Shown here in pieces: positions 10,176-64,000 of a stretch of DNA of 64,000 bases. Numbering within the stretch: position 1 is the stretch's first letter; every line of letters starts with the position of its first letter. Below the pieces are notes generated by a model. That model was not told the DNA's origin. It did no database searches and saw only the letters and a list, made by a program, of their open reading frames with translations. Source of the stretch: Camelus ferus (taxonomy: Eukaryota); the NCBI RefSeq assembly GCF_009834535.1, contig NC_045696.1, forward strand, positions 70,868,001-70,932,000, read 5' to 3'. Made by a program: the position numbers and the translations under genes.

Positions 10176-10429
10176 CAAGAGTCACTTTAAGTATTAACTT
10201 TCCCCTCTGTCCATCTCCCCATCCCCCATCCTTTTCCCTTTCTTCAGTTTCCTCATGAACCTCTGTGATCGCTTTGAGTCTCTTTAAGCAGTGAGTTTCC
10301 ACAGGAATATGTGACGCTGCATGACACATACATATTCACTCCTCCCTTCTTGTCTGTCAAAGAGAATGAAGGCCTCAAAGGAGTGGACACAGGAGGCTTC
10401 CCTGCCTTCCCAAGTGGGAGCTGACTCAC

Positions 10430-11050
10430 ACCTGGCTCATCACGAGGATTGCACGATTCACTGCCCCGCCCCACCCAAGTCCCAGCTACCTGTCCACACG
10501 GTGTCCGGCCTACCCGGCGCCCCGCTCTCCGCAGGCTGGGGGTGGGCGGAACACCCACAGGTTCCCGCATTCGGGGTCGGTACCTCGGCGCAGAGTAGCA
10601 GGACCTCGGGAAGTTCAGAGATCACCCACTGGAGGGCAGTGGCGCGCTTCCCAGAAGAGGCCGCCGGAAGGCTTTCTGTTCGCCGGGCTCCAGAATCCCA
10701 CCATCACTTACACTGGTTTTGCACCTGGTGCGGGAGATGCAGGGTAAAAGAACCCACAGACACCCTACCCCATCCCCGTCCCCAGAGCCCCGCCAAGGCT
10801 GGAGAGGAAGCTGAGTCCAGGCACGCTCTCAAACATACATACGCGCGAATGGAGACCAGAGCGGAGGAGGCGGGGTCGGGGGCAGACCCCAAGAAGAAGC
10901 AGGGTTAGGGATCAAATCGAGAGCACGCGGGGGTTCGTAACGTGGACGGCAGCAGGGGTACCTAGTCCAGTTTTGACCAAAAATTCCTCTCACCCCAATC
11001 CCAAAGCAGTTCTCCCATTGTTCCACCATGCGTAATCCCCGTCGTTAGAA
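10430..11050. promoter_or_regulatory. CpG-rich, GC-box-containing promoter-like region with no associated gene in the window
   Basis: Locally dense CpG; GC boxes gccccgcccc (about 10463) and gaggcggggtcgggg (about 10867); ETS-like ccggaag (about 10664); cgcgcg. Confidence 0.45.
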
Positions 11051-17564: not shown

Positions 17565-18330
17565 CCCTGTCCCCCGGGAACACCTACCTGAGAGGTGAGC
17601 CTACCTGTTCACCAATGGTTAGGCTGTCATCATGCTCCTCCCGATGGGAGGGAAGGGGCAGTCATTCCCTGTGAAGGGTCCTGGGCTCTTCTCCCCAGTG
17701 CTGGTGTCCCTGCCCTGCTGGGTCTAGGTCCTACAAAGGGGTGTGAAGGCAGAGGTGGTGGCAGCAGGTGCCTCCGGAAGAGGCAGGGGAAGATATTCCT
17801 CCTTAATATCAGCCTTGATAGGCTCTTCTGGTTTTCAAGGATAATGCAGATGATAACGGTGGATTAGGAGGAGGCAGAGGAGCTGGTCCTACTGCACAAC
17901 GGGGCAGCCAGTTACAGGGTTTGGCATTCTTCCTGCTAAGTGTGTGGTGGCTGTAATGAACCAGGCTGGGCCGGCACAGCAGCACGTGAAGATGGGTTGG
18001 GCTGCCAAGGCCTTGGCCTTCGGTGTAGGTGTTCAAGGCATGGACAGCCCATTAGCTACCAGCTGCTGCAACTGTGTGGGACAATGCGCCCCCCAATTTG
18101 CTGGGGACCCTGAGCTTCCTCTCCACCTTCTGATGGCACCTAGCCTGAGGGGCTATCTTGTGAGCACCATCTGCAGCCTCTGGCACCATGGTTGCCCCTC
18201 CTATCAAAGGGCAGGGACCAGCCCACCATGCCCGGTGGGCCCCAGAGGTGGAGCCCAGGAAGCTCAGGGCAGAGGCTCTGCTACAGGAGGGAGCTTCCAG
18301 GCTCAGAACTGTCCCCTGAGGATGCCCACA
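17565..18330 (+). pseudogene. Decayed paralog of the TEDDM3-like gene (tandem duplicate, many indels and stops)
   Basis: Colinear by-eye matches to 26930-27870: cagtgctggtgtccctgccctgctg; ggcagaggtggtggcagc; atcagccttgataggctcttc; ttcttcctgctaag; cagcacgtgaagatgggttgggctgccaaggccttggccttc; ttctgatggcacct; ctgcagcctctggcaccat; 3'UTR ggatgcccac. The 5' boundary is less certain than the rest. Confidence 0.85.
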
Positions 18331-19751
18331 GGTGGGCCAACTCAAGTGTCCTGAGAGCCACAGTTTGATTTCCTAACCTCTGAACCATGTTCTTATTTCC
18401 TGGGGCTGTTGAGCTTGTGGGATGGCTTCAGGACCTGTCTGTCAGTCTGTCTTGCTGTGCGAAAGTGGCTTCCTGGCCTCTCTGGAGGTTTGGGGATTCC
18501 AGAGGTTGGGCTGAGATGGAGGAGTTGGGGGAATCAGGGTGGACCAGTGGGTCTTTCCAGTTCTCACTGGAACGACTGTGACAAGGATGTTTGGGAAGAA
18601 GGGTATGTGAGGGGCTGTCCCGGTACAGGCTCATCCTTGACAAGAGGGTTGTGTGTCTGCATTTCTCTTGGTCTTTTTCGAAAACACTGTTAACTGGTCG
18701 AAACCAAAAGCTGACTCCCAGAAAGTGTGCTGGGTGATTGGAGGAATACCCTCTACTGATCCGGAAAAGGTCTGGATGGAGAGAGAGGGTCGAGCAACAT
18801 GCCTGGACACCAGGTTCCTCATGGGCTTCTTCTGCGTTCTTTATTTTTTATGTAAAACTTTTTATTCAAGCATAACAAAAATACAGACAAGTTCATAAAT
18901 TTCAAGAATGCAGCTCAGTCACTTTTCCCCAAATCACCTGTGTAACCAGCATCCGATCAAGAAATAGAAATGTAACAGAATCCCAGAAGCCCCTCCCAGT
19001 TCCTCCCAGTCACTCCCGCTCATGTTCACCTTCTCCTGACTTCTAACACCTTAGTTAGTTTAGCCAGTTTGGGGACTTAATATGAACAGAATCATAAGAT
19101 ATTACTAAGGGACTTTTAAAAGCAGAAATATGTAATACCTAATATTGGGAGTTTTGCTTTGGGATGATATAATCCCCAATCACCATCACCCTCACACGTG
19201 TAGTAAATTCTGCTGCATAGATAATGCATTTTGCAAGCATTTTTCATTTTGCTTTCTAATGGGTAGAGGTGGGAATCAATGAAAAGGCACCAAGTCTCTC
19301 CTCTGGGTCACTGCAAACACACACCAAATGGCGCTGCTGCAGAATGTGTTTAGAACAGACTCAGACACTCGGCGTCTGGTGGGAGGGAAACCTCAGCCTT
19401 GGAATGCTCAAAAGCCTTGGACAGAGAGTTGGACTTCCCAGAGTGTGGGATAGACGCTGAGCTAACTTCATCTACATTTGAAAAGATAGGGTGATGCTCC
19501 ATTAGCATCTGGGTCACAAACTAATAAGCACAGTGTTTCATTAGAGGAGATACAAAGAACCATGCGTGGACATCCCTATTTGACGTTAACTGGATGGTTC
19601 ATTCCTGTGTGAATTATACCTGCTTGAGTCAGGTTATGGAGCTGAAGCAAACCAAGCCCATCCAAGTCTAGAAAGAGAGGAGGAAGGAGGCTCCAGCCAC
19701 AGATATGGAAAGGGAGAGAGGTCACCATCCATCCACCTATGTAGAAATGTT

Positions 19752-26923: not shown

Positions 26924-27811
26924 ATGGGAACCCTCGAGGGACACCTGCTCCCAGGGTCATTCTTCCTCTTCTACTCACTCTACTACTCGGTGCTGACGTC
27001 CTTGGCCCTGCTACGGGGACAGAGATTCCTCAGACCCCCTCTGCCCCCAAGGGAGAAGCGAGGGCACAGGTGGTGGCAGCTGTTCCCTGTGGAAGGAGTG
27101 GTGAAGATAGTCATCAGCCTGATAGGCATCTTCCCCGAGTTCTTCTACCCTCTCGGAGTAAGCCGGCTGAGGATGGTGGACTGGGAGGACCCGCGGCGGC
27201 CGTTCATGTTCAAGGACAACTGGCAGCACGTCACCATGTACGGGTTCTTCCTGCTCAGCGGCGTGGTGGACATCGTGAGCCAGGCGTGCCAGGCGCGGCA
27301 GAACATGAAGCTGGAGCGGGCGGCCGAGGCCCTGGCCTTCTTTGTGCTGGTGCTGATGATGGGGTCCCACATCGAGAACAAGGGTACGCTGGAGATCCGC
27401 GTGCACGTCCTGTTCATGGTGCCCACCTTCCTGGTCAGCCTGGTGCTCACCATCGAGGTCTGGGTCCCTGACCAGCCCCAACTCTGGGTGCTCAAGACCT
27501 GGATGGGTCTGGTGCTCAGCAACTGGATGCTGCACTTCAGCGTGCTGCTGTACGTGCCTCCCTCCGGGCAGCCCTGGCGGGCAGAGAACCCCGTGGACCT
27601 CGCCTTCCTTACCATCTTCTTCTGCTGGCACCTGGGCTTAGCAGCTGCCATGCTAGCTGCTGTCTATGGCCTCTGCAGCCTCTGGCACCATCGCTTCTCC
27701 TCCTGGAGAGAGGCCTCAGGCAACAAGTATGAGCTGTGCCCCACGGGTGAGGGCAGCCCAGAGCTTGAGAGGCTCACTGCGGGGGGCCCACTGCAGGACA
27801 GGGGCATCTAG
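26924..27811 (+). CDS. TEDDM3: Intronless TMEM45/TEDDM (DUF716) family multi-pass membrane protein, 295 aa; most like transmembrane epididymal family member 3
   Basis: Strong Kozak gagaccATGG; open frame to TAG; high GC3 and retained CpGs; family motifs MGxxxGHxLPG, NWQHxTMYxFF, SGxVD, LExxVH, FCWH; about 7 hydrophobic segments. Family call is firm, the specific symbol is from recall and less sure (about 0.65). Confidence 0.92.
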   Translation: MGTLEGHLLPGSFFLFYSLYYSVLTSLALLRGQRFLRPPLPPREKRGHRWWQLFPVEGVVKIVISLIGIFPEFFYPLGVSRLRMVDWEDPRRPFMFKDNWQHVTMYGFFLLSGVVDIVSQACQARQNMKLERAAEALAFFVLVLMMGSHIENKGTLEIRVHVLFMVPTFLVSLVLTIEVWVPDQPQLWVLKTWMGLVLSNWMLHFSVLLYVPPSGQPWRAENPVDLAFLTIFFCWHLGLAAAMLAAVYGLCSLWHHRFSSWREASGNKYELCPTGEGSPELERLTAGGPLQDRGI

Positions 27812-28734
27812 ACACACACTCTGTCTTTGTGCTGCACCTTTTGTAATGAGAGTTTTGGGGATGCCCACCGTGTGCACAGCACAGAAATGTCCTGGGATCT
27901 ACGGTGTGGCTTTCCATCACAGGAGACCCCTTCCTTGTTCCTAAAGGAAACTTCTAGTTCCTAGGATTACTTGCATCACTCTGTTCTCTCCAGGCCAGTC
28001 TCTTTCCTGTCTTGCTGTTCAGAATGGTTCTTAACCAGGGACTTACATGAAGTGAGAACAGGAGTAGTGCTTTTTCTCTGACAGCTTTTAAGATCCAAGA
28101 GGAGGAAACGAAATGAGGAAATAGAGGGAGGTGGGGGGTCTCTGGGGACTGTCTGAGGCAGAGCTGGTGAGCATGCGCTCCTGTGGGCCTGCAGCTGAAG
28201 ATTTGAAATGTGTGTGTGTGTTGGGGGGGGGTCTGTTTTCTTCATTTCTCCCTGTTTTTTATTCTCACTAAAGGTAACAAGATGAAAAGCTTGCTTTGTT
28301 GTTTTCTAATCTAAACTGAATGAGGTAACTTCCTGCAGGAGTAAGGGGTGGCAATCAGTGTAACGGGGCTCAAGTCTGGGGAGAGAGGAGGCATGGGAGG
28401 AATTCCCAAAGGCGGTGTAAGAAACAAGGATCATATTTGTAACATTTTCAGTTGTCTGGTTTTTGCTGTGGCATAAAACAACTCCATTGTTATGTAGTCT
28501 TTCAGTAAAAGTCTGTGATACACATATATGTGTCTTGTGTGAGTGATTCTGGGGCAAGATCAAAGAAAAGGCCCTGATTTCAGTTGGTGGGAGCAGAAGG
28601 GGAGGAACTGCCATGAAACATGGACAGAAATGACCTCAGTGGTCCTGGAGACGCAGGGACTCGGAGCCAAGAAGCACCCTGAGAATGTCAGCCTCTGGAA
28701 TCTGCAGAACTTTTCAGCCAGGAGAGGTGGTGCT

Positions 28735-37879: not shown

Positions 37880-40800
37880 ATATCCCCCCAAAACAGAATA
37901 TACATTCTTTTCAAGTGCACGTGGAACATCTTCTAGAATTGATCATGTACTTGGGCACAAAAGAAGCCTCAACAATTTTAAGAAGATAGAAATTATCTCA
38001 AGCATCTTCACTGACCCAATGCCATGAAACTAGAAATCAACTACAGAGAAACAAAGGAGAAAAAAAAAGAAAAACATGGAGATTAAACAACATGCTATTT
38101 AAAAACCAATGGGTCAATGATGAAATCAAAGTTGAAATTAAAAATACCTTGAGACAAATGCAAATGAAAACACAACCACATAAAATTTATGGGACACAGC
38201 AAAGGCAGTGCTAGGAGGGAAGTTTATAGCGATATAGGCCTTCCTCAAAAAAAAATCTCAAATAAACAACCTAACCCACCAGCTAAAAGAATTAGAAAAA
38301 GAAGAGCAAAAAACCCCAAAAGGCAGCAGAAGGAAATAAATAATAAGGATCAGGGAGGAAATAAATAAAATAGAGATTTAAGAAACCATAGGAAAAATCA
38401 ATTAAACCAAAAGCTGGTTTTTTGAAAAAGTAAATAAAATCGACAAACCTCTGGCCAAACTCACAAAGAAGAAAAAAGAGAGAGCACAAATAAGCAAAAT
38501 AAGAAAGGAAAATGGAGAAATTACAACAAATAACATGGAAATACAGAATATTGTAAGAGAATATTATAAAAAACTATATGGAACCAAAATGCATAACCTA
38601 GAGGAGATGGACAAGTTTCTGGAAACAAACAGTCTACCAAGACTGAACCAAGAAGAAACTGACCACTTGAACAAACCGATCACTAGAAATGAAATCGAAT
38701 TAGCAATAAAAAACCTCCCTACAAATAAAAGTCCAGGACCGGACAGCTTCACCGGGGAATTCTACCAAACATACAGAGAAGAACTCATACCAGTCCTTCT
38801 CAAACTCTTCCAGAAGATTGAAAAGGAGGGAATACTCCCAAACTCATTCTATGAAGCCACCATCACCCCAATACCAAAACCAGGCAAAGACACTACCAAA
38901 AAAGAGAATTATAGGCCAATATCACTGATGAACATAGTTGCAAAAATCCTCACCAAAATAGTAGCAAATAGAATCCAACAGCACATAAAAAAGATTATAC
39001 ATCATGACCAAGTGGGGTTCATCCCAGGGACACAAGGGTGGTTCAACATATGCAAATCAATCAATGTAATACATCACATAAACAAGAGAAAGGATGAAAA
39101 CCACATGATCATCTCAATAGTTGCAGAAAAAGCATTTGATAAAATTCAACACCCATTTATGATAAAAACTCTCACCAAAGTGGGTATAGAGGGAACATAT
39201 CTCAACATAATAAAAGCTATATATGACAAAACTACAGCCAGCATAGTACTCAATGGTGAAAAACTCAAAAGCTTCCCACTAAAATCTGGGACAAGACAAG
39301 GCTGCCCACTATCACTACTCCTATTCAACATAGTCTTGGAAGTCCTAGCCACAGCAATCAGGCAAGAGAGAGAAATAAAAGGCCCCAAATTGGAAAAGAA
39401 GAGGTAAAAGTGTCACTATTTGCAGATGACATGATACTATATATAGAAAACCCTAAAAGGTCCACACAAAAACTACTAGAACTAATCGAAGAATTCAGCA
39501 AGGTAGCAGGTTACAAGATTAACATTCAAAAATCAGTTGCATTTCTTTACACTAACGATGAATCAACAGAAAAAGAAAGTAAAGAAACAATCCCCTTTAA
39601 AATAGCACCCAAAGTAATAAAATACCTAGGAATAAATCTAACCAAGGAGGTGAAAGAATTATACACAGAAAACTATAAACCATTGATGAAGGAAATTAAA
39701 GAAGACTTTAGAAAATGGAAAGATATCCCATGCTCGTGGATTGGAAGAATCAATATTGTTAAAATGGTCACACTGCCCAAGGCAATCTACAGATTTAATG
39801 CAATCCCTATCAAATTACCCAGGACATATTTCACAGAACTAGAACAAATCATAATAAAATTTATATGGAACCACAAAAGACCTATAATTGCTAAAGCATT
39901 ACTGAAGAAAAAGAAAGAGGCTGGAGGAATCACTCTCCCAGACTTCAGACAATACTATAGAGCTACAGTCATCAAGACAGCATGGTATTGGTACAAAAAC
40001 AGACATATAGACCAATGGAACAGAATAGAGAGACCAGAACTGAACCCACAAACTTTTGGTCAACTAATCTTCGACAAAGGAGGCAAGAATGTACAATGGA
40101 ATAAAGACAGTCTCTTCAGCAAATGGTGTTGGGAAAACTGGACAGCAGCATGTAAATCAATGAAGCTAGAACACTCCCTTACGCCATACACAAAAATAAA
40201 CTCAAAATGGATCAAAGACTTATACATAAGATAAGATACAATAAACCTCCTAGAAGAAAATATAGGCAAAACATTATCTGACATACATCTCAAAAATGTT
40301 CTCCTAGGACAGTCTACCAAAGCAATAGAAATAAAAGCAAGAATAAACAAATGGGACCTAATTAAAATTACAAGTTTCTGCACAGCAAAGGAAACCATAA
40401 GTAAGACAAAAAGACAACCTATGGAATGGGAGAAAATATTTGCAAATGAAACTGACAAAGGCTTGATCTCCAGAATATATAAGCAGCTCATATGACTTAA
40501 CAAGAAAGAAACAAACAACCACATTCAAAAATGGGCAAAAGACCTAAACAAGCAATTCTCCAAGGAAGAAATACAAATGATCAATAGGCACATGAAAAAA
40601 TGCTCAATATCACTAATTATCAGAGAAATGCAAATCAAAACTACAATGAAATATCACCTCACACCAGTCAGAATGGCCATCATTCAAAAGTCCACAAATG
40701 ACAAATGCTGGAGAGGCTATGAAGAAAAGGGAACCCTCCTACACTGCTGGTGGGAATGCAGTTTGGTGCAGCCACTGTGGAAAACAGTATGGAGATTTCT

Positions 40801-41483
40801 GAAAAGACTAGGAATAGACTTACCATATGACCCAGGATTTCCACTCCTGGGCATATATCCAGAAGGAACCCTACTTCGGGAGGACACCTGCACCCCAATG
40901 TTCATAGCAGCACTATTTACAATAGCCAAGATGTGGAAATAGCCTAAATGCCCATCAACAGATGACTGGATAAAGAAGATGTGGCATATTTATACAGTGG
41001 AATACTATTCAGCCATAGAAACCAACAACATAACGCCATTTGCAGCAACATGGATATCCCTGGAGAATGTCATTCTAAGTGAAGTAAGCCAGAAAGAGAA
41101 AGAAAAATACCATATGAGATCACTCATATGTGGAACCTAAAAAAAAGAACATAAATACAAAACAGAAATAGACTCATAGACATAGAATACAAACTTGTGG
41201 TTGCCAAGGGGGCAGGGGGTGGGAAGGGACAGACTGGGATTTCAAAATGTAGAATAGATAAACAAGAATATACTGTATAGCACAGGGAAATATATATAAG
41301 ATCTTATGGTAGCTCACAGAGAAAAAAATGTGACAATGAATATATACATGTTCATGTACAACTGAAAAACTGCTTTACACTGGAATTTGACACAACATTG
41401 TAAAATGATTATAACTCAAAAAAATGTTAAAAAAATAAAATTAAACAGCTGATTAAAAAATAAAATAAAATAAATAAATAAAA
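37880..41483 (+). mobile_element. 5'-truncated LINE-1 (ORF2 from late endonuclease domain to poly-A), inactivated
   Basis: ORFs 38535-39407, 39410-40234 and 40577-40942 give L1 RT ([25 protein letters not shown]) and the Cys-rich C-terminus; frameshift near 39380, premature stops (e.g. 40232-40234, 40940-40942); 3'UTR and A-rich tail. Confidence 0.97.
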
Positions 41484-61081: not shown

Positions 61082-61480
61082 AGAAAAGAAGTGCTGACCA
61101 CCTGTGATGAGTGTCGTTAGCTGACAGCCTCCAGCTGTTCATTTCCTCAGAATGGGCCCCCGCCCGTAACTGAGTAAGACGGTGGCACAGGACCTAGCAT
61201 TGTAACAATCGTTGCTCTGGAGCTGCCCCATTGGGCAGTAGTTTATCATATTTGCATTTCCAAACTTGATGGCTGCCCCTGCTCAATCCTGCTCTCTCCC
61301 TTTCCTTTCACAGTTGTTCCCCTCCAATAAAACCTCTGCACCTAACTCTGCACTCCTAACTCTGTCTCAGCAACCGCTTCCTGGAGAGCCCAACCTGTAA
61401 CGCTTGGTACCAGGAGTGGCCCAAGAAAGCATCCCCCATGAAAGAGGCACTAAGGAAACAAAACGACTCAGCCAGCCTTT
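61082..61480 (+). mobile_element. LTR16-like ERVL LTR and start of internal sequence
   Basis: gacagcctccagctg...ccaataaaacctctgcac...cttcctggagagcccaacctgtaac then ttggtaccaggagtgg. Confidence 0.6.
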
Positions 61481-62769
61481 GAGGATGGCCACCCCTCTGC
61501 CAGCACAATGGGCACATGAGCAGAGTGGCAATGAGGGCAGAGACAGGGGCTGGGCAAGGGCCCAACAGAGTGGATTCATACTTAACAAGGACAGCCTGGC
61601 TGCTGCTGACTCTGAGGTCCAACCTACCAGCAACAGTGACCTAAGGTCTCTGGTAGCAGGTTGACTACATTGGGTCCCTTCTATCCTCAAAGGTCAGGAA
61701 TAGACATCTATTCTACATTTAGGTTTGCCTTTCTTGCTCATAAGATCTCAGCCAGCACTGGTGGTTAAGGAATGCCTGATTCACAGATGTGGAATCCCAT
61801 ACAACATGCATCTGTTCTAAAAATGTACCCAGGATTTGTTTTAATCGGGTATGGTGAGACATGCAGACGTGAAAATGATTGTCGTGATGGAAAAAAAATT
61901 GATACAGATTTCTAGAAAGAAGAAGGCTTCCATGCCATGCCACATACAGGACCACATAGGGAAGGATCAGTGATGGTCAGGAGGCAGAAGAGGGGAGAGC
62001 ATGGCTTGAGCCCTCATTGGGGTTCTTGTGAGAAGGGCTGGGCAAGGCAGGGTAGGTACTCAGAGTAAGTGTAGGACTGGATTGATTTCATCAGGCTCTG
62101 GGCTATATGGCTGGTCCCTATTCATTGGTACCTGGGCAAGTTTGATAAAGGAGATAGTTGGGGAGGCAGGCTCTGGATTGGTTGGTTTGCATATCAAAGG
62201 TGCACTTGTTGGTTGTTAGCTATCTCCAGGAATTAGCGAGACCCAGGAGGGGCCATCTCCCCAACGTCAAGGCCCCAAATGCCAGAGGATCAAGAATACA
62301 GGAAGCAAAAAAATATAGACAATACAGCATCCAACCAGGGAATTCTGTTACAGCAAAGGAAGCAAAGCCCTGATCACGGGACTCACTGGTGACATCACCT
62401 TCCACACCACTCAGAGGCAGAAATCAGAGATTCAGTATCTTCTAAGGTATCCACCCAGAGGTCCCCATCCCATGTGCCCGGGTCCCACAGATCTGCCCTA
62501 GGTGAGCATTCAGCCATCTTTGGAGATATGTCACTTGGCCACTTTGTCTATTAAATCCTAGGTTTCATTGCCAGCTCTTTTTTCTTCATCAACTGTATGA
62601 GATGAAGGATTCTTTGAATATAGTTCCTTGTGCTATACAGTGGGCCCACTCCAGTTTGGTGCAAACCGTGAACAATTAAGAGGTAATTGAGAAGGGTGGC
62701 AAAAAGGTAATTGAGCACACTGAAAACTTGTGTTCCTTTCAGTATTGCATGTAATGATAGGTTTTCATA

Positions 62770-63448
62770 TTTAGGTTCTTTAAAAACTAAAAATAGAGTT
62801 ACCATATGATTAAGCAATCCCACTCTTGGGCATATATCTGGAGAAAACTCTAATTCAAAAATTACATGCACCCCAGTGTTCATAGCAGCACTTATGATAG
62901 TCAAGACAAGCAAGCAACTTAAATGTCCATCAATAGATGAATGAATAAAGAAGACGTGGTAGAAATATACAGTGGAATGTTATTTAGCCATAAAAAGGAA
63001 TGAAATAATGCCATTTACAACAACATGGATGGACGTAGAGATTATCATACTAAGTGAAGTAAGTCAGACAGAGAAAGACAAATATCATATGATATCATTT
63101 ATGTGTGGAACCTGAAAAAAAAGATACAAATAAACTTATCTACAAACCAGAAATAGACTCAGACACAGAAAACAAACTATGATTACCAAAAGGGAAAGGG
63201 GAGTGGAGAAGGATAAATCAGGAGTTTGGGATTAACATATACACATTACTATATATAAAATAGATAAACAACAACTGTATAGCATAAGGAACCATATTCA
63301 ATATCTTATAATAACCTATAATGGAAAAGAATCTGAAGGAGAATATGTGTATGTGTATATATATATATATAAATAATTTTGCTGTATGCCTGAAACTAAC
63401 ACAGCATTGTAAATCAGCTATACTTCAATTAAATAAATAAATAAACAA
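62770..63448 (+). mobile_element. L1 3' fragment (ORF2 C-terminus plus 3'UTR)
   Basis: aaactaaaaatagagttaccatatgat...atggatggacgtagagattatcatactaagtgaagtaagtcagacagagaaagac...(TAAA)n tail. Confidence 0.9.
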
Positions 63449-64000
63449 GAGACTGTCCTTCTGTCCCCAGCAGTGCTTTGTCTTGTCCCTGTAATGAGTT
63501 TTGTGAGGATGCCCACTAGGCGAGTGACACTGTAGTGTCATGGGATCCACAGAGTGTCTTCCTATCTCAGGAGCTGTGTTCCTTGTCCCCAGATAAAACT
63601 GCCAGCTGCTGGGGTGGTTTTTTATGCTGTCAATCTATCAGCCTTCCTGTCTGTCTAGCTTACTCTGTGGGTGTGGTTTCCAGGCCTCACTGAGGGGATT
63701 CCAGGCCTTCTCTGGCTGCTTCTGGAACCCAGGAGGAGGTACAGGAAGAGGAAATGGAGGAGATGAGCATGAACTGGTAGATAACCCAGTCTTCCCAGCC
63801 CCCTTACACACTGATAACTGGTAGGAAATCTCCCTTCCTTATTTTTCTTCTTAAAAAGTAGATTGTCTATCCTTGACCTTTCTCAATATTTAAGATACAG
63901 CTACTTTTAAAAGTATGGTAATAATAAACACAAAATTCAAGAAGATGAACCCCTCAGGGGTGGGGGAATGAAGGAAGCAGATGAATAAAATATGGTGGGA

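Follow-up and report, generated by a model that had tools for sequence, protein, structure and literature searches.

The window, that is, the whole stretch of 64,000 nucleotides of Camelus ferus DNA analysed here, contains one intact gene of the TEDDM3 family (gene A), a decayed copy upstream of it (copy U) and, 36 kb downstream of gene A, a short remnant (R) of a further paralog, B. The features are as follows:

17571-17685, plus strand: possible 5′ end of U, with the GHLLPG anchor inside it (not significant).
17686-18298, plus strand: decayed coding part of U, a TEDDM3-family gene and putative unprocessed pseudogene (alignment and frameshift-aware profile).
17865-17867, plus strand: TAG stop in place of the W of DWE (sequence and profile read-through).
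17956-18354, plus strand: chance ORF of 132 aa over U, following the old frame in two stretches (ORF list).
18021-18025, plus strand: junction of a deletion of ~140 nt, corresponding to about 27341-27484 of gene A and common to U and its ortholog P0360.
18299-18560, plus strand: U's own copy of the 3′ flank/UTR (homology to the flanks of A and R).
26924-27811, plus strand: gene A, an intact single ORF of 295 aa with a DUF716 (PF04819) domain (ORF list, domain search and tree).
27812-28136, plus strand: 3′ flank/UTR of A, with homology to the U and R flanks (flank alignment).
62773-63447, plus strand: old repeat with an A-rich tail, adjoining R (likeness to an ORF2-bearing copy at 38.5-42 kb).
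63448-63798, plus strand: R, the 3′-terminal piece of paralog B, which sets in right behind the position of B's stop codon (protein-tail scores).

Gene A matches PF04819 with 45.8 bits (cut-off 25). A protein search with this gene returned 115 proteins, 107 of which were used for a family tree, eight short or odd rows being left out. The placental proteins split into two clades, A and B; marsupial and monotreme proteins fall outside both, and TEDDM1-like representatives lie further out. Clade A comprises gene A, which shares its cluster with an alpaca protein, and the Teddm3 proteins so named in Mus, Rattus and Phodopus. In tenrec and in Glossophaga, A is present as two recent copies (P0060/P0063; P0039/P0040). 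Echidna has two divergent family members (P0141, P0344) on records of equal length, and one of them branches outside the other monotreme and therian proteins (83/62). Elsewhere in the window, the element at 38535-40942, which we take to be an L1, has long ORF2-like open frames of 290 and 267 aa and is apparently younger than the other repeats, and 61100-62330 resembles old LTR-type repeat sequence by eye. Two CpG-rich patches (1501-2000 and 10251-11000, observed/expected 0.58-0.70), in which no coding gene was identified, are possibly regulatory elements or promoters of non-coding RNAs.

Copy U spans 17686-18560 overall and is colinear with gene A at 67% identity. In a local alignment of the gene region (26978-28136) with the copy (17686-18539), 556 of 833 aligned bases are identical; the score of 9562 is not approached by any of 200 dinucleotide shuffles (mean 1470, maximum 2041), and the colinear match is significant. 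Among 230 tiles of the window, only those on gene A itself score higher. BLASTN of the gene A region against the window gives three colinear matches at 17.7-18.2 kb and one unexpected match at 63490-63613, and a frameshift-aware profile reaches 261 on U and at most 58 on tiles without U or A. The initial annotation, made from the sequence alone, had described a colinear duplicate on the same strand about 9.3 kb upstream, and the alignment bears this out. The blocks by which it had traced the copy (WWQ, ISLIG, FFLLS, KLERAAEALAF, FCWHL and CSLWH) are found at their places, as is its 3′ match of ggatgcccac (18320-18329 against 27859-27868). The 3′ flank of U is homologous in its own right to that of A (140 of 219 bases identical, score 2343) and to R (160/241, score 4978), neither score being matched by any of 200 shuffles, and this homology is significant over about 0.26 kb. 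The GHLLPG anchor with which the same description began (17571-17610) did not hold by itself, since 24 of 40 bases are identical and 29 of 200 shuffles reach its score. Beyond the anchor region, no significant homology to A was found in the 5′ flank (7 of 60 shuffles reach the score), and comparisons of the U, A and R flanks are not significant past about 0.3 kb on the 3′ side. Because significance stops at ~0.3 kb of 3′ flank and is absent from the 5′ flank, the flanks do not show a DNA-level duplication.

The coding part of U is heavily damaged. Over 595 aligned coding bases there are 23 indels, 17 of which shift the frame, in keeping with the frameshifts reported earlier, and the profile read-through crosses six stops. 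The change of the W of WE to tag, placed earlier near 17864, is present and begins at 17865. A further lesion, absent from the earlier description, is the ~140-nt deletion, which takes out about residues 141-186. The lesions are real and no assembly error, since all sampled words of the U region are present in runs not flagged as source: 17 of the 24 listed sequencing runs hold all of these words, and seven of the 17 (from four studies) are not flagged as a possible source. None of the listed runs that contain the region is an RNA run. Three runs guessed to be RNA each gave three short, low-depth contigs, with identical rows from two of them, which perhaps represent one data set, and a single-cell run gave 0 reads; these results bear neither way on transcription. 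The search of the 132-aa ORF for PF04819 (DUF716) gives no match, descent being visible by the frameshift-aware profile alone, and a PUMA match of the same ORF falls under the cut-off.

Differences between U and A are spread evenly over codon positions (63/199, 67/200 and 60/196, or 32%, 34% and 31%), a pattern without constraint by codon position, and the largest share of changes falls on CpG sites (31 of 52). At the columns at least 90% conserved in 41 comparison proteins, 34 of 53 residues are retained in U, against 53 in pig B, 51 in rat and 45 in opossum. Of the non-degenerate, non-CpG bases in these columns, 25 of 109 differ in U; with stiffer gap costs the same count is 16/61 and 12/49. 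In simulations of neutral decay, none of 60 runs attains 25/109 at any of K = 0.08, 0.12 and 0.16, and the decay of U at otherwise fixed sites is compatible with K of about 0.2-0.4 substitutions per site. We take the distance from camelids to the placental root to be about 0.2. On that dating, the death of U likely falls around or before the placental radiation. Most likely, U makes no protein and decays neutrally. Its homology to a functional paralog, its disabling lesions and the absence of coding constraint are those of a pseudogene, putatively an unprocessed (duplicated) one.

An ortholog of U with the same lesions occurs in another mammal. It had been stated that no ORF reveals the copy; the 132-aa ORF partly does, and as a query it retrieved, as the one match among 12 candidates, the protein P0360 (11 members, E 2e-16). 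Between P0360 and U, 110 codons align, 72 of them identical (score 419); with A the alignment covers 80 codons, of which 43 are identical (score 115). It reads straight across the junction of the large deletion in U and across the shifted segments near 18110 and 18165. Three derived residues are common to P0360 and U, two of them occurring in none of the 41 comparison proteins, and P0360 also carries A's E135. The sharing of deletion and frameshifts implies that the last ancestor shared by camelids and P0360's mammal had a broken U. The distance between P0360 and U is K 0.22 (0.16-0.29) substitutions per site; for scale, the pig B tail and R are 0.13 (0.06-0.26) apart over both lineages, the shrew tail and R 0.31, and a primate-like A tail and gene A 0.32 substitutions per site. 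At such a distance P0360 would be too far from U to come from another camelid.

The unexpected match near the end of the window belongs to R. Between R and the 3′ flank of A, 186 of 276 bases are identical, a likeness matched by none of 200 shuffles, and the homology stops after about 0.3 kb. The repeat that adjoins R is presumably the 3′ end of an L1, a label assumed in part from its likeness to the copy at 38.5-42 kb. As some database models read into their own 3′ UTR, the copies can be distinguished by protein tails. Thirteen such tails were tested on the three 3′ flanks: four point to R, two of A type point to A and seven are uninformative. The four tails assigned to R are all of B type and score best there and not on U: pig 103 (A 45, U 43), shrew 56 (A 29, U 23), P0092 69 (A 25, U 28) and P0149 43 (A 25, U 31). 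R is thus the 3′ end of B, and U is not the ortholog of B. No coding part of B was found in the window, on both strands by alignment and on plus-strand tiles by profile. It follows that B is deleted here save for its 3′ end and that the order of the 3′ ends is U-A-B; the coding part may have been removed by a deletion at or after the L1 insertion. The earlier picture of a two-gene cluster is therefore too small, as three homologous 3′ ends lie within the window.

Paralog B is intact in several placental orders. Clade B proteins are about 55-60% identical to those of clade A and are full length in pig (XP_003358780.2), warthog (XP_047608629.1), peccary, dugong (KAM9226158.1) and Sorex fumeus (XP_055977958.1). 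In both elephants B is near full length (260 aa; elephant model XP_003413064.1); it is partial in manatee and colugo models and truncated in models of cattle, yak, musk deer and whale. The RefSeq/UniRef models of clade B, named "transmembrane epididymal protein 1A-like", are intact counterparts of R and not of U; they bear the same automatic name as A and are not distinguished from it. In pig, warthog, both elephants, dugong and shrew, the record that carries A is as long as the one that carries B; in yak, the accessions are MXQ84918.1 for B and MXQ84921.1 for A, a difference of three. These record lengths and accession numbers, rather than coordinates, suggest that A and B are linked in other species as well.

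The two paralogs have not diverged evenly along their length. Same-species A and B are about 55% identical in columns 1-210; in columns 211-262 identity is 85-94% in elephant, manatee, dugong and colugo, whereas shrew, peccary and bovids show 58-73%. Columns 211-295 unite the A and B proteins of elephants and sirenians in one clade (100/99), and columns 1-210 sort them by paralog. This pattern is best explained by later gene conversion between tandem A and B in elephants and sirenians. The C-terminal third is homogenised in the pairs P0020/P0100, P0032/P0129, P0026/P0094 and P0033/P0103, from sirenians, elephants and probably colugos. A separate group of proteins (P0107-P0109, P0099, P0146) switches between A type and B type midway, representing either conversion tracts or chimeric assemblies of both copies.

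The position of U was examined in four trees, three of them built on subsets of 36-44 rows, taken from the matches of three protein searches and one HMM search. In all of them U is sister to all placental A genes, the afrotherian ones included (96/86, 98/88, 93/89 and 95/89), U itself entering as the product of a frameshift read-through and forming a long branch. None of the alternatives is rejected by AU tests, with p = 0.10 for U beside camelid A, 0.14 for U beside all B and 0.085 for U beside cetartiodactyl B. Of 14 polarised diagnostic columns, U has three A-derived and two B-derived states. When proteins were ranked one by one by their frameshift score on U, clades A and B did not come apart. 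Of the intact or partial proteins considered as U-type candidates, P0102, P0166, P0235, P0152 and P0153 and the two tenrec copies were placed in clade A, and P0149 and P0210 in clade B. No intact protein groups with U in these trees, which hold subsets of the matches of non-exhaustive, word-based searches. Scans of metagenomes for DNA of U, A or B orthologs confirmed none of 308 and none of 259 pattern matches.

The branching of U from the stem of A has one competitor of some substance, in which U stems from an old duplication within the B lineage, or is a mosaic of A and B made by gene conversion, and would still be a third, long-dead copy. Placement of U with all B lowers the log-likelihood by only 3.0 (AU p = 0.14), the 3′ flank of U scores higher on R than on A (4978 vs. 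2343), F106 (and F75, in a poorly aligned stretch) is common to U and B, and conversion does occur at the A/B locus. Nevertheless, the four trees put U with A, the A profile outscores the B profile on U (275 vs. 230), and U has the A-derived V114, S199 and M209, with A's E135 in P0360; we regard a B-lineage or mosaic origin as unlikely. A recent origin, in which U is a young duplicate of camelid or artiodactyl A that decayed quickly, could draw on the AU test of U with camelid A (p = 0.10). It is hardly credible in view of an ortholog with the same lesions 0.22 substitutions per site away, of a camelid A that is no nearer to U than rhino or elephant A, and of the ancestral H97 kept in U where placental A has K.

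The initial annotation also supposed that the second gene survives intact in other mammals. This is right in that an intact paralog, B, exists in several placental orders; the place was mistaken, since B maps to 63.45 kb and not to 17.6 kb. That the gene at the position of U itself is still intact somewhere is highly improbable: P0360 shares its lesions, the five candidates P0102, P0166, P0235, P0152 and P0153 fell inside A with no intact protein beside U, and R, not U, is where the intact second gene of other mammals maps. In its favour, the lower edge of the decay estimate (K about 0.2) comes close to the assumed distance of camelids from the placental root, so that U could have died after the afrotherian/xenarthran split, and word-based searches miss proteins, as the gene A search missed shrew B, which a later search found. 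A slightly smaller chance still is left to U being a retrocopy of a TEDDM3-family mRNA inserted beside its parent. Homology that extends no further than the coding sequence and some 0.26 kb of 3′ flank would fit a retrocopy, and the parent coding sequence is a single ORF, so that intron loss gives no test. Against this, U lies on the same strand 9 kb from its parent in an array that holds a third copy, and no polyadenylation hexamer occurs in the 1.7 kb downstream of U. The short flank homology speaks little for retroposition, since loss of flank homology is expected at the age of U: R, which comes from a real gene, likewise loses its homology to A after ~0.3 kb. No poly-A run follows 18560; at the age of U, a poly-A tail and target-site duplication would be eroded in any case.

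We consider it likely that U is a dead TEDDM3-family pseudogene, one of three same-strand copies (U, A and B) that probably arose by tandem duplication in early placentals. On this account U likely died around or before the placental radiation, A remained intact, and B was lost here and is intact in pigs, dugong and shrew. The earlier idea of an old duplicate in a TEDDM cluster is supported. A TEDDM3-like ancestor would have duplicated twice in tandem in stem placentals, perhaps by unequal crossing-over, U branching off the A stem after the A/B split. U would have lost its frame early and then decayed neutrally, while A was widely retained and B persisted in some orders and disappeared from others.

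A wider proposal, to which we lean with less assurance while still rating its chances as better than even, is that stem placentals had a three-gene TEDDM3 array. U would then be the fossil of an undescribed third gene dead at the base of the radiation. B would be a DUF716 gene without a name, intact in pigs, peccaries, elephants, sea cows and shrews; other lineages would have lost it repeatedly (by deletion here, and with truncated models in cattle, yak, musk deer and whales), and in elephants and sirenians gene conversion would have exchanged its C-terminal third with that of TEDDM3. If so, the pig would be a model for testing a gene absent from present accounts of the family. Apart from this proposal, the findings correct the inventory of a poorly studied membrane-protein family: in several orders TEDDM3 has a sister gene that is intact and still nameless, and a third copy is present as a fossil. 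The shared lesions of U can be used for dating, as rare genomic changes, and partial gene conversion of the kind proposed for the A/B pair can mislead orthology calls.

Published accounts treat the family in part. The mouse gene 2310042E22Rik is one that we take to be Teddm3. The GLADX study derives 2310042E22Rik from a duplication in the eutherian ancestor (PMC3377690). Its relevant passages have the gene missing from Sus, in contrast to the database, where the pig has a protein of A and one of B, and these passages contain no sister gene, third copy, order or gene conversion. A 2026 review of TMEM45 counts three mammalian genes, TMEM45A, TMEM45B and TEDDM1, in the same DUF716 multi-pass endomembrane family as gene A, and the words "pseudogene" and "duplication" occur in it 0 times (PMC13056615). 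Teddm3 serves as a marker of a subiculum layer (PMC13669418). In the literature searched, neither the three-copy array nor clade B was found described; the GLADX supplements may show an A/B tree. A, B and U make up a mammalian clade of their own, to which the TEDDM1-like representatives do not belong.

The locus has modest value as family annotation and offers no new mechanism, being an ordinary case of birth and death in a tandem family. Unprocessed pseudogenes and birth-and-death tandem families are characterised by same-strand copies, neutral decay, lineage-specific loss and local gene conversion. The U-A-B cluster does not differ in kind from these established families.
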